From: Candidatus Heimdallarchaeota archaeon
Lineage (GTDB): Archaea; Asgardarchaeota; Heimdallarchaeia; JABLTI01
Assembly (NCBI GenBank): GCA_019056785.1
Contig: DXJV01000033.1
Location: 1-42,579, forward strand
Direction of reading: 5' to 3'
Length of the DNA stretch: 42,579 bases
Positions 38,433 to 42,579 of this stretch are shown one piece after another. The notes beneath the pieces are model-generated. The model ran no database searches. It was not told where the DNA came from and saw nothing but the letters and a program-made list of their open reading frames with translations. Position numbers and translations under genes: made by a program. The first letter of the stretch is position 1. The number at the start of each line of letters is the position of its first letter.

Positions 38433-38457
38433 CACACTTCTTCAAGTGAAATCTAGA
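38433..38457 (+). other. 5' arm of the pre-23S processing stem
   Basis: CACACTTCTTC (38433-43) pairs with GAAGAAGTGTG (42569-79) and TCTAGA (38452-57) with TCTAGA (42556-61), separated by A-rich bulges (BHB-like). Confidence 0.8.
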
Positions 38458-40507
38458 TCTCCAAAGTAGGTTCCGACACGCAAACGCCATCTGGGGGATG
38501 GATAGGCTTGAGCGCCGATGAAGGCCGTGGCTAGCTGCGATAAGCGCGGGGTAGTTGCAGGCAAACGTCGATCCCGCGATTGCCGAATAGGAATTCCATG
38601 TATGGACCAATAAGCCATACAACTCCGTAAGGAGGGGGAACGCACCGGACGGAAACATCCAAGTAGGTGCAGGAAAAGAAATCACCTGAGATGCCCTGAC
38701 TGTAACGGCGAGTGAAAGGGGCATAGACCAAACTGAATCCTGGCGGGCGACCGTTAGGAGATGTGGTGTTGTGGTCTGTCACTAAATTCTGCGTATGATA
38801 GTCGAATATCCTGGAAAGTTTAGCCTTAGAAGGTGATAGCCCTGTAGGCGAAATCATACCCAGAAGGAGACAGTAACCAGAATAACGGGGGTTGGAAATC
38901 TCTCGTGAACTGGGGCACAACGAGCTCCAAGTCTAAATACGTCTCAAGACCGATAGCGCAATAGTAACGTGAGTGAAAGCTGAAAAGTAACCCGGAAGGG
39001 TGGTGAAAAGTGCCTGAAACCAGATGGTTATAGACGTTTGTGGTCCGAAAGCGTAGAGTCTGGACGAAGAGAAGGCTGGTGACGGCTGGATCGAGTTCAG
39101 AGGAGCGGGATCACAAGATCCGTCTAGAAACACGGGCCAGGGAGTTTGCCCTCGTGGCGAGCTTAAGGGTTTCAAAGACCCGAAGGCGGAGCGAAAGCGA
39201 CAAGTCCGCAGCTTGCAAGGGACGCCGTCTGAAAGGGCGGGAAGTCACGGGGGTAAGACCCGAAACCGGACGATCTATCCGTGGACAGGCTGAAGCCCGG
39301 GGAAACTCGGGTGGAGGGCCGAACAAGTGTTGACGTGCAATTCACGTTTGTTGATCTGCGGATAGGGGCAAAAGACCAATCTAGTCCGGTGATAGCTGGT
39401 TCCCAACGAAGTGGACATAGGCCAGCCTGATTTGAGGTGGCGCATTCGGTAGAGCAAGGATTCGTGGTCATGGGGAGTAAAATCCTCACCCATGAGTCAA
39501 ACTACGAACGGATGCGTACCATAGACGATCAGAGTCGGGCGTGCGTGCGTAAGGCACGTGGCCGAAAGGGGAATAACCCAGACCATGGTTAAGGACCCCA
39601 AGTCTCGATTAAGTGTTAAAATCGGAAGGGCGTCCTTGGACTAAGACAGTTAGGCGGTAGGCTCAGAAACAGCCACCCGCTAAGCAACACGTAACAGTGG
39701 ACTAACCGAGTCCTTGGGCCCCGAGAATGGACGGGGCTAAATCGAGCTCCGAGACCATGGGGCACACTGCAAGGTGTGATCCGGTAGTTGGGCGATCGGG
39801 TTGGGCGGAAGTAGGGCAGTGATGTCCTGTGGACCGACCCGATTTGCAGATCCTGGCGATAGTAACAGCAAAGAGAGGTGAGAATCCTCTCCGCCGAAAG
39901 GGCTAGGGTTTCACGGCAACGTTCGTCAGCCGTGAGTTAGTCGATCCTAAGGCCAGTCTTACCTGAGCTGGTCGAAAGGGAAACAGGTTTAAATTCCTGT
40001 ACTGCGTGGATACGCCAGAAGCGGCAACGCAAAGCTCATCTTCTGACGCGACTGGATAGGCTCTGTTAAGCCATCGCTTAATTTAACTGTATAACCCTCC
40101 GAAGTACTGTGACAGTGAGAAGGAGGCGAAAGCAGGAATAGGCTGCCAATAGTGGCGGCTAGAGCTGCTTCCACTCGCCCATGAAAAGGAAGATGAGAAG
40201 GATTCCACGTAATCGTACCGAGAACTGACACAGGTGTCCCTAGGTGAGAAGCCTAAGGCGTGTTCGGTCAAAGATGGTGAGGGAAATCGGCAAATTCGCC
40301 CTGTAACTTTGGGATAAAGGGTGCCTGTGGGCTTGAAAGGGCTCGCAGGTCGCAGTGACAAGAGGGGGGCAACTGTTCAATTCAAACATAGCAAACTGCA
40401 AGAGCGAAAGCTTGTGAACAGTTTGTGAATCCTGCTCAATGCTGGTAAGTCAAAGCCGGTTACAACCGGTCTAAGCTCCAGTCAATAGCGGGAGTAACTA
40501 TGACTCT

Positions 40508-41387
40508 TAGCTAAGAAGAAATCCTATCGGGAGTCGTTAAATCTGGCTATATGCGGGAACATCGCTGAAGAGCACTCCTAAGTAAGGAACAATGTGCTGT
40601 TCCAAAGCGACAATCCGCAGGAAATCGAACAGTTCCTCTCAAAACTCATTTCGGAAGAATAGAGGCCGAAGAACCTCAAAAAAAAACAGAAAGCAAATAT
40701 AAACGAACCATTAAACAAAGAGATGAAAAGAGCAATGTTGCGAAAAGCAAGAAACCAAAGCACAAAAAACACTTATCTCTGTGGACTGGTGGACGGCGAA
40801 GGATCTTTTAGCATAAGCATAAAACCACACAATACAACAAAGTTTGGTTGGGTAATAGACCCAACGTTTAGCTTAACACTCGAGGAAACAGCAGAACATG
40901 TGCTAAGAGAATTGCAGCAAGCGCTACGATGCGGAAGAATAATCACAAAACCAGGACAACCAAACTGTAAACTTTTCATAGAAGAAAGCAGAAGAAATCT
41001 AAAGGAAAAAGTAATACCCTTTTTTGAACGATACCCACTCGAAGTGAAACGAAAAAGCTTCGAACATTTCAAAAAAGTAATTGAACGATTAGAACAAAAG
41101 GAACATAGCAAAGCAGAGAGTTTTCTAAGACTGGCGGTGTATGCCTTCAGCCTGAAGGAAAACAAAGGAACAAGAAAATACACAATAGAAGACATCTTAC
41201 AAACAATGAAACACAAACCAGAAAACGCAGAAGAAATAGTGAAAAATGAGCAAGAAAAACTGATGAAAAGAAATGAGTAATGGAGAAGAATGTCGAGATC
41301 CCCAGAGACTATACGCCAGACACCAAACAGAAAGTGAGAAACTTCTGTGCGGTGAAGATATAGTCCGGCGATAAGAAAATATCGTTG
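40508..41387 (+). mobile_element. Group I self-splicing intron at 23S position L1923 (E. coli numbering), 880 nt
   Basis: The 5' exon ends GACTCT and pairs with IGS GGAGTC (40530-35), giving a U-G splice pair. P3 TCTGGC (40542-47)/GCCAGA (41315-20); P4 TGCGGG/TCCGCA; P7 GACTA (41307-11)/TAGTC (41361-65); P8 CACC/GGTG; P9 hairpin; terminal G at 41387. Removal restores TAACTATGACTCT-CTTAAGGTAGC. Confidence 0.96.
40723..41280 (+). CDS. Single-motif LAGLIDADG homing endonuclease, I-CeuI-like, in the intron P6 region
   Basis: YLCGLVDGEGSF. SISIKPHNTTKFGWVIDPTF and GRI...RRNLKEKVIPFFERY resemble the I-CeuI segments as I recall them (ISTKKLATSKFGLVVDPEF; RQSLEEKVIPFYEQY). Strongly A-rich coding strand. 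Confidence 0.93.
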   Translation: MKRAMLRKARNQSTKNTYLCGLVDGEGSFSISIKPHNTTKFGWVIDPTFSLTLEETAEHVLRELQQALRCGRIITKPGQPNCKLFIEESRRNLKEKVIPFFERYPLEVKRKSFEHFKKVIERLEQKEHSKAESFLRLAVYAFSLKENKGTRKYTIEDILQTMKHKPENAEEIVKNEQEKLMKRNE

Positions 41388-41930
41388 CTTAAGGTAGCCA
41401 AATGCCTTGTCAGATAAGTACTGACGTGCATGAACGGATCAATGACCTCCCTACTGTCCCCACCATCTACCGAGTGAAATCACTATCCAGCGAACAGTCT
41501 GGAACCAACCAGCGGGAAGAGAAGACCCCGTGGAGTTTTACTGCAGCCTGTGCCTGTTGTACGGGTCGCAATACATAGAGTAGTCGGGAGCGTTGAACCA
41601 AGTTCTCCGGGACTTGGGAATGCGACAATGAAACACCGACTATTGTTGCTTGTACGACTAACTTTCTGCGGAAAGGACAAGTATTGGTGGGCAGTTTAGC
41701 TGGGGCGGCTGCGCTTGAAAAAGTATCGAGCGTGTCCAAAGGTCAGCTCAGGAGGGACAGAAATCCTCCGTAGAGCATAAGAGCAAAAGCTGGCTTGACA
41801 GGGTTCTTACCCATAGGGAACCCTGGAACGAAAGTTGGGTCTAGCGATCTGTCGAGACTTCTCGTTGAGGTCCGGCAGCGGCAGAAAAATTACCCCGGGG
41901 GTAACAGAGTCGTCGCAGGCGAGAGCTCAC

Positions 41931-41998
41931 CCACTCTCCAGTTCTTTGTTACCGCTGATAAGAAACGATCTAGGCTCACGGAACTGGAGGAGGAGTAA
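41931..41998 (+). other. 68-nt archaeal bulge-helix-bulge intron in 23S helix 89 (after position 2477 equivalent)
   Basis: Central helix GCTC (41925-28)/GAGT (41993-96), 3-nt bulges ACC and AAA, intron stem CTCCAGTTC/GAACTGGAG. Cutting after the second nt of each bulge restores GAGAGCTCAC-ATCGAC. Confidence 0.88.
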
Positions 41999-42309
41999 AT
42001 CGACCCTGCGGCTTGCTACCTCGATGTCGGCTCTTCCTCTCCTGGCGCCGCACAAGACGCCTAGGGTAGGGTTGTTCGCCCATTAAAAGGGAACGTGAGC
42101 TGGGTTTAGACCGTCGTGAGACAGGTCGGATTCTTTCTACTGGTTGTGCTGCGAATCTGAGGGTAGGGCCGGGTCGGTACGAGAGGACCCCCCCGTCGGC
42201 GCCTCTAGTCTACCGGTTGTCTGATAAGGCATTGCCGGGCAGCCACGCGCCAAGCGATAATAGCTGAAAGCATCTAAGCTAGAAACGCGTCCTGAAACGA
42301 GATTCGCAT

Positions 42310-42438
42310 TCTGGGGATTATTTGGAGTTTGAGACCTGCTGCTCTTTAGCTGTTGAGCAGCGCTTTTAGATGTCAAGTGTATGTCTTTTTTGGTCTCCTC
42401 CTGCACGGGGCTGGTGACAGCAACGTGTCTTCCTCAGA
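42310..42438 (+). other. Large multibranched expansion segment ES39 (helix 98 region)
   Basis: Closing helix TCTGGGGA/TCCTCAGA. Internal helices GAGACC/GGTCTC, GCTGCTC/GAGCAGC, GCACG/CGTGT and GCTG-GTGA-CAGC. Confidence 0.85.
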
Positions 42439-42555
42439 CGACGGTTCCGATACAAGATCGGTTTGAAAGGCCTGCGGTGTACGCGTCGAGTCTTCGGGCG
42501 AGATGTTCAGCCGGCAGGTACTTACCACCGAAGCGTGTCAATTCCGAAATGGACT

Positions 42556-42579
42556 TCTAGACCTTAAAGAAGAAGTGTG
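42556..42579 (+). other. 3' arm of the pre-23S processing stem (truncated by window end)
   Basis: Complementary to 38433-38457. Confidence 0.8.

Follow-up and report, generated by a model that had tools for sequence, protein, structure and literature searches.

A group I intron, a bulge-helix-bulge intron and a bulge-helix-bulge processing stem in one Heimdall-group 23S rRNA gene

Introduction

Short introns that lack an open reading frame (ORF) and are bounded by a bulge-helix-bulge structure (BHB) are known from crenarchaeal 23S rRNA genes, and two of them, each of ~55 nucleotides (nt), were reportedly described in Staphylothermus marinus by Kjems and Garrett in 1991. Archaeal pre-rRNAs are also known to form stems with a BHB and to give rise to circular pre-rRNA (Tang 2002; Qi 2020; Birkedal 2020, PMC7758197; Schwarz 2020, PMC7714728). 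Archaeal group I introns were catalogued by Nawrocki, Jones and Eddy (2018, NAR 46:7970, PMC6125680), who count 39 of them, including 9 of subtype IB4 at position 1923 of the large subunit (LSU) rRNA and 21 with LAGLIDADG genes. These authors name LSU/1923 among the sites that archaeal group I introns with LAGLIDADG genes commonly occupy, and they describe group I and BHB introns within one archaeal rRNA gene. Asgard archaea do not appear in the table of that catalogue, and the sole Loki-binned contig was rejected there as bacterial. A literature search on Asgard rRNA introns returned no paper; the work of Wu 2022 (PMC8813620) holds only an endonuclease-like gene in a mobile element beside a 16S gene. 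Here we analyze a DNA stretch of 42,579 nt from a Candidatus Heimdallarchaeota archaeon (assembly GCA_019056785.1), referred to as the window, which is one whole contig (DXJV01000033.1) and carries a 23S gene with an 880-nt group I intron, a 68-nt BHB intron and flanks that can pair into a BHB-containing stem. This single gene very probably gives rise to a precursor that undergoes three separate RNA-processing events.

Results

The LSU gene of the window is located at 38470-42544 on the forward strand. It is complete and archaeal, matching the Rfam model RF02540 (LSU_rRNA_archaea) with 2474.5 bits over model positions 1-2987, and its length is 4075 nt against the 2987 positions of the model. 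We aligned it by MAFFT with 14 LSU genes drawn from 40 relatives (our own handles for genomes and LSU sequences are given in brackets below). The alignment places two inserts, at 40508-41387 (880 nt) and at 41931-41998 (68 nt), both of which are missing from most relatives. The exons total 3127 nt with a G+C fraction of 0.53, and G+C falls from ~0.53 to 0.35-0.41 at 40500-41400. Relatives without the introns read GACTCT/CTTAAGG in helix 69 (H69) and GAG(T/C)TCAC/ATCGAC in helix 89 (H89), the junction in the latter being GAGTTCAC directly followed by ATCGAC. By our own count along the conserved sequence, the first insert follows Escherichia coli position 1923 (L1923) in the 3′ strand of H69, and the second follows position 2477 in the loop of H89.

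A preliminary description of this DNA had proposed a group I intron in H69 and a BHB intron in H89 of a probable Asgard archaeon. Both placements hold, the first by alignment position and conserved fold, the second by alignment position and the BHB motif at the cuts. The junctions predicted at that time, GACTCT-CTTAAG and GCTCAC-ATCGAC, match the intron-less relatives exactly, and the host is indeed an Asgard archaeon of the Heimdall group. It was also right that no intact copy is visible: the metagenome-assembled genome (MAG; 2.87 Mb, 82.5% complete, 102 contigs) contains one LSU locus, and a second LSU gene was not found in this 82.5%-complete MAG. Since both intron types occur in the only LSU copy found, two different splicing chemistries would be necessary for a working 23S, as the same description had argued.

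The 880-nt insert (40508-41387, forward strand) has the features of a group I intron. It has a P3-P9 core with P3/P7 pseudoknot topology, a P1 with a U.G pair at the splice site, and a terminal guanosine (omega-G) at 41387; in P1, the guide GGGAGUC (40529-35) pairs with the exon sequence GACUCU (40502-07). Of the 400 Asgard genomes searched, 8 from at least five families have a confirmed homologous intron at L1923. DNA and protein searches located the homologues in one genome of the same genus (G005), in all three members of another family (G036, G062, and G063), and in three genomes of other Asgard families (G118, G310, and G106). The P1 pairing GACUCU/GGGAGUC is invariant in all eight introns, and all eight terminate in UUG (omega-G) immediately 5′ of the exon CUUAAGG. 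Helices P3, P4, P5, P5a, P5b, P6, P7, P8 and P9 were located and are paired in each of the eight introns, and all of them except P5 show two-sided compensatory changes across this set of at least five families. Examples are UCUGGC/GCCAGA vs UCCGGC/GCCGGA in P3, GACUA/UAGUC vs GGCCA/UGGUC in P7, and CGAUA/UAUCG vs CGGUUU/AAACCG in P9. A conserved core with such changes is what would be expected of an active ribozyme. We also considered a BHB at the borders of this intron and rejected it, as none can be drawn (GACU vs UCGU).

The loop of P6, whose strands lie at 40620-26 and 41295-41301, contains an intact homing-endonuclease gene (40723-41280, forward strand). The encoded protein has 185 amino acids (aa) and one LAGLIDADG domain (Pfam PF00961, E 4e-19, 69.8 bits against a cut-off of 23.1), with the motif LCGLVDGEGSF. 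Among its PDB relatives are I-CeuI (2ex5) and 3e54, an enzyme from an archaeal rRNA intron. The recognition sequence of I-CeuI is the same 23S stretch around position 1923. Intact homologues with 68-81% identity are present in six other Asgard genomes. Identity is 78% to the endonuclease of a genome from another family outside the class (G118:C44:6584-7120), and 69-75% to those of the same-class family (G036, G062, and G063). The similarity among these enzymes does not follow host relatedness, which is suggestive of horizontal homing and, from sequence comparison, of a horizontal spread of the L1923 intron among Asgard lineages. No phage relatives of the endonuclease were found in the phage collection.

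The 68-nt insert (41931-41998, forward strand) contains no ORF and folds, with the tip of H89, into a BHB whose cuts would fall between 41930 and 41931 and between 41998 and 41999. Its outer helix h is GA/UC (41923-24 with 42000-01), which are native H89 pairs, and its central helix H consists of 4 base pairs (bp), GCUC/GAGU (41925-28 with 41993-96). The 3′ bulge is AAA (41997-99), and the 5′ bulge begins with ACC (41929-31) and is followed by an inner helix of 9 bp. Cuts after the second base of each bulge yield GCUCAC/AUCGAC. The motif is thus a BHB, in a relaxed form in this genome. For this intron we relied on folds of individual sequences and not on pair counting, since two of the five aligned rows have their 5′ arm misplaced by MAFFT.

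The H89 intron, at 68-71 nt, is present in all five genus members in which the region is assembled, and it is missing at precisely these cuts in other families. In one other Heimdall family, the same bond carries an intron of 329-339 nt in all three members (L004/G036, L037/G063, and L038/G062). These longer introns form a textbook hBHBh′ with an inner helix of 12 bp, whose sequence differs from that in the short form. All eight H89 intron copies have a canonical central helix and a 3′ bulge of 3 nt, while the sequence of the inner helix varies by lineage with the pairing kept. We note that a box, (A)GGCTCA(C/T), occurs near the 3′ end of both the 68-nt and the 329-339-nt introns and copies the end of the 5′ exon, GAGCTCAC; the short intron may have arisen from the long one by deletion. 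A C/D-box small RNA within the 68-nt intron was rejected by eye, the CUGA-like motif not being conserved in congeners. A MAG titled 'Candidatus Bathyarchaeia archaeon' in GenBank (L042, DATKZI010000020.1) contains an LSU that has the H89 intron and belongs to this Heimdall genus. As GTDB places the MAG in the genus of the window, its title is probably wrong.

The genome encodes both a splicing endonuclease and an RtcB ligase. The EndA family PF01974 matches twice, with 98.9 and 63.3 bits, and the RtcB family PF01139 matches once, with 584 bits. By our reading of the motifs, one EndA paralogue has the Tyr/His/Lys pattern of a catalytic alpha subunit, and the other lacks the His and is beta-like. 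One catalytic alpha-type and one beta-type protein suggest an (alpha-beta)2 enzyme. According to a 2026 preprint, a broad-specificity (alpha-beta)2 EndA is found in most Asgard genomes, and the pair encoded here fits that pattern.

The flanks of the 23S gene pair with each other in a co-fold, with a 5′ strand at 38433-38457 and a 3′ strand at 42556-42579 (both on the forward strand), and the last base of the stem is also the final base of the contig (42579). The outer helix h has 11 bp (38433-43 with 42569-79), the central helix H covers four positions, AGUG/CCUU (38445-48 with 42562-65), and the inner helix h′ has 6 bp, UCUAGA (38452-57 with 42556-61). Both strands have an AAA bulge (38449-51 and 42566-68), and an extra A (38444) faces the 3′ bulge. 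EndA is predicted to cut between 38450 and 38451 and between 42567 and 42568. Four genus members share this conserved stem, and its equivalent in G036 is perfectly canonical. The BHB-like terminal stem noted in the preliminary description is therefore real and near-canonical, as judged by the co-fold, and the circularization suggested there is supported by the following contigs of congeners.

We scanned a metagenome collection for the exact spliced H89 junction and found it in three contigs (L034-L036). The same junction occurs in 0 of ~185,000 species genomes, a scan in which four Heimdall MAGs show the intron-containing pattern. The three contigs have three different data-set prefixes, contain only 23S sequence, and are 87-92% identical to the genus. 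All three are circularly permuted, with the 3′ flank joined to the 5′ flank as GACCTTAA directly followed by ATCTAGATC. This joint is the exact product of the cuts predicted between 42567 and 42568 and between 38450 and 38451, and the predicted junction CCUUAA/AUCUAGA is present in these congeners. One contig overruns its own start by ~195 nt, with the repeated sequence being non-identical, which implies a circle of ~3157 nt. None of the contigs has the group I intron, the H89 intron or an intron found in the sarcin-ricin loop of G008 and G005 (see below). From their topology, we infer that they were assembled from circular pre-23S RNA of congeners in its fully spliced form. The sample type of the data sets concerned (Ga0307926, Ga0307927, and Ga0316596) was not found in the literature. 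It is worth mentioning that L035 (1-70 and 3200-3260) and L036 (~2680) disagree with each other and internally in the H69 loop. The discrepancies, a 6-nt deletion and single-base changes adjoining the L1923 junction, could reflect assembly noise near the ends of contigs, a mixture of strains, or errors of reverse transcription where bases are modified.

The covalently closed or permuted 23S might be the persistent form of the LSU in this genus, as in Pyrococcus furiosus, and not a fleeting intermediate, but we regard this as rather improbable. The argument for it is circumstantial: all three contigs continue across the ligated joint and none stops at the termini of helix 1, and the spacer kept in them hardly varies among species that differ by ~10% in their rRNA. 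If true, LSU maturation would be fixed in an EndA/RtcB-dependent form, with three to four enzyme-made joints and an optional ribozyme step.

Further inserts were observed in the LSU genes of relatives, and the LSU genes of Heimdall and other Asgard archaea are insert-rich at several sites. An ORF-less insert of 61-62 nt interrupts the sarcin-ricin loop in L003 (G008; LSU positions 2836-2896) and, at the same site, in L014 (G005). It lies between GGTAC and GAGAGGACC, after E. coli C2658 (window-equivalent 42180/42181), is absent from the window, G009, and the three RNA-type contigs, and is probably another BHB mini-intron. In other members of the class, inserts of ~680 nt are present at window-equivalent 40384 in L012 (G026) and L013 (G040), and inserts of ~150 nt at window-equivalent 42121 in L007 (G020) and L013 (G040). 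An insert of ~143 nt lies near window-equivalent 41903 in G106. In the window itself, 42319-42399 is a genus-specific stretch of ~80 nt near the 3′ end of the LSU gene, falling in the region of the expansion of ES39 (expansion segment 39) and helix 98 (H98) described for Heimdallarchaeota (Penev et al. 2020, PMC7594248). No 16S or 5S gene is located within the 38 kb upstream of the 23S gene (window 1-38400). The 16S gene is found elsewhere in the MAG, split across two contig ends (C18 and C1) with the break at about model position 828.

Discussion

Based on these observations, we propose the following processing of the 23S precursor; its operation in this organism and the activity of the ribozyme are our inference. 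The flanks of the gene would form a long stem, the host EndA would cut its BHB, and RtcB would join the ends into a circular pre-23S. The same EndA and RtcB would excise the 68-nt intron from the tip of H89, and the 880-nt intron in H69 would remove itself by the guanosine-initiated two-step group I reaction. The LAGLIDADG protein would act at the DNA level, in homing into intron-less alleles, and possibly also assist intron folding. The three events would be independent of one another. Of the five genus members, all carry the H89 intron and two carry the group I intron, and the latter also occurs in three other Asgard genomes that have no H89 intron. Because each intron varies among relatives independently of the other, the earlier suggestion that their splicing must be coordinated finds no support.

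Several observations weigh against this proposal. The general Rfam group I model RF00028 finds the intron in two weak pieces, P4-P6 and P7-P9, whose 21.6 and 22.9 bits stay below the gathering threshold of 50. In the H89 motif of this genome, a 5′ bulge of 3, 4 or 5 nt can be drawn, and the minimum-energy fold favors an outer helix that deviates slightly. One U.C mismatch lies in the central helix of the terminal stem. As for the permuted contigs, their RNA origin follows from topology and not from sample records, and they belong to other species of the genus and not to this organism. Their nearest genomic relatives have no group I intron, so the contigs bear on BHB processing only. The low RF00028 score is weak counter-evidence, since the same general model likewise fails for all archaeal group I introns, as stated in the 2018 catalogue (PMC6125680).

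Among the alternatives, the most serious is that the group I intron needs a protein helper, either a LAGLIDADG maturase or a host factor, or that it is only partly removed. Its P6 loop holds a large ORF, and it scores low against the general Rfam model. Among the LAGLIDADG proteins of organellar introns, some act as maturases. The 2018 catalogue (PMC6125680) also appears to rest on computational evidence. On the other hand, the core helices, the U.G pair, the guide, the consensus of P7 and of the joining region J8/7, and omega-G are all conserved with compensatory changes, and the general model misses archaeal group I introns in any case (PMC6125680). We thus consider dependence on a helper, or partial removal, unlikely.

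Far less probable is that the gene of the window is a silent or decaying copy and that a working intron-less 23S gene lies in the unassembled part of the genome. The MAG, at 82.5% completeness in 102 contigs, leaves room for such a gene, and the contig stops at the last base of the stem. Yet the exons match the full LSU model with 2474 bits, and both the core of the ribozyme and the endonuclease gene remain intact and structurally constrained. In each of the four congeners whose LSU is full-length, a single LSU match is seen and has the H89 intron, which is also present in the partial LSU of a fifth congener (G010). Two same-class genomes assembled in one contig (G016 and G026) likewise show one LSU match each.

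The H89 loop adjoins the peptidyl-transferase center and is, to our knowledge, not a known expansion site. The idea that the 68-nt insert stays unspliced in the mature rRNA as a small expansion segment draws on the unusual expansion segments of Asgard LSU rRNAs (Penev 2020, PMC7594248), but it is scarcely credible, given that the predicted cuts of the flanking BHB recreate the sequence of intron-less relatives exactly, and that the insert is missing from the three RNA-type contigs and present in all five genomic copies, the spliced form occurring in no genome.

The findings on this gene have several implications. Asgard archaea, the closest prokaryotic relatives of eukaryotes, join the hosts of group I introns. 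Heimdall LSU genes also bear small EndA-type introns in the most critical loops, namely H89 here and the sarcin-ricin loop in congeners. A precursor with both intron types is suited to studies of the order of processing, and to testing the old proposal that BHB introns descended from group I introns. In practical terms, rRNA-based surveys and annotation pipelines will mis-size or break such genes.

The preliminary description regarded the combination of the two intron types as undescribed, which does not stand: the same pairing in other archaea was published in 2018 (PMC6125680). The 23S gene of the window is therefore a further example of a system whose kind is already known. The introns of the catalogue resemble the present one in the LSU/1923 site, the internal LAGLIDADG gene and the BHB intron in the same gene, and also in that a large insertion splits the model match in two and the general Rfam model gives no significant score. 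The L1923 site, as placed by alignment, is one known for introns of subtype IB4. The differences from the catalogued cases are a Heimdall-group Asgard host and a companion BHB intron that is a 68-nt mini-intron in the H89 loop.

The H89 intron resembles the crenarchaeal mini-introns of 23S genes in being a short ORF-less hairpin, bounded by a BHB and situated in the functional core of the LSU, and it would presumably also be cut by EndA and ligated by RtcB. It differs from them in the host phylum, in its site (the H89 loop, after E. coli 2477), in its genus-wide fixation, and in sharing this site with the ~330-nt intron of another family. We found no paper naming the H89 site after E. coli 2477. 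The terminal stem is like that of archaeal circular pre-rRNA, as the 23S flanks pair, EndA-type cuts are predicted in two bulges with four pairs between them, and the permuted contigs show the ends joined into a circle. Unlike in the studies of circular pre-rRNA, the joint is known here from assembled contigs of congeners alone and not from reads. Finally, the endonuclease can be compared by sequence with enzymes of known structure. The I-CeuI-type homodimeric enzymes (2ex5) and 3e54 are also single LAGLIDADG domains of ~170-210 aa, and they match the protein of the window significantly in sequence. Its best PDB matches, unlike the I-CeuI type, are the halves of two-domain fungal mitochondrial enzymes.

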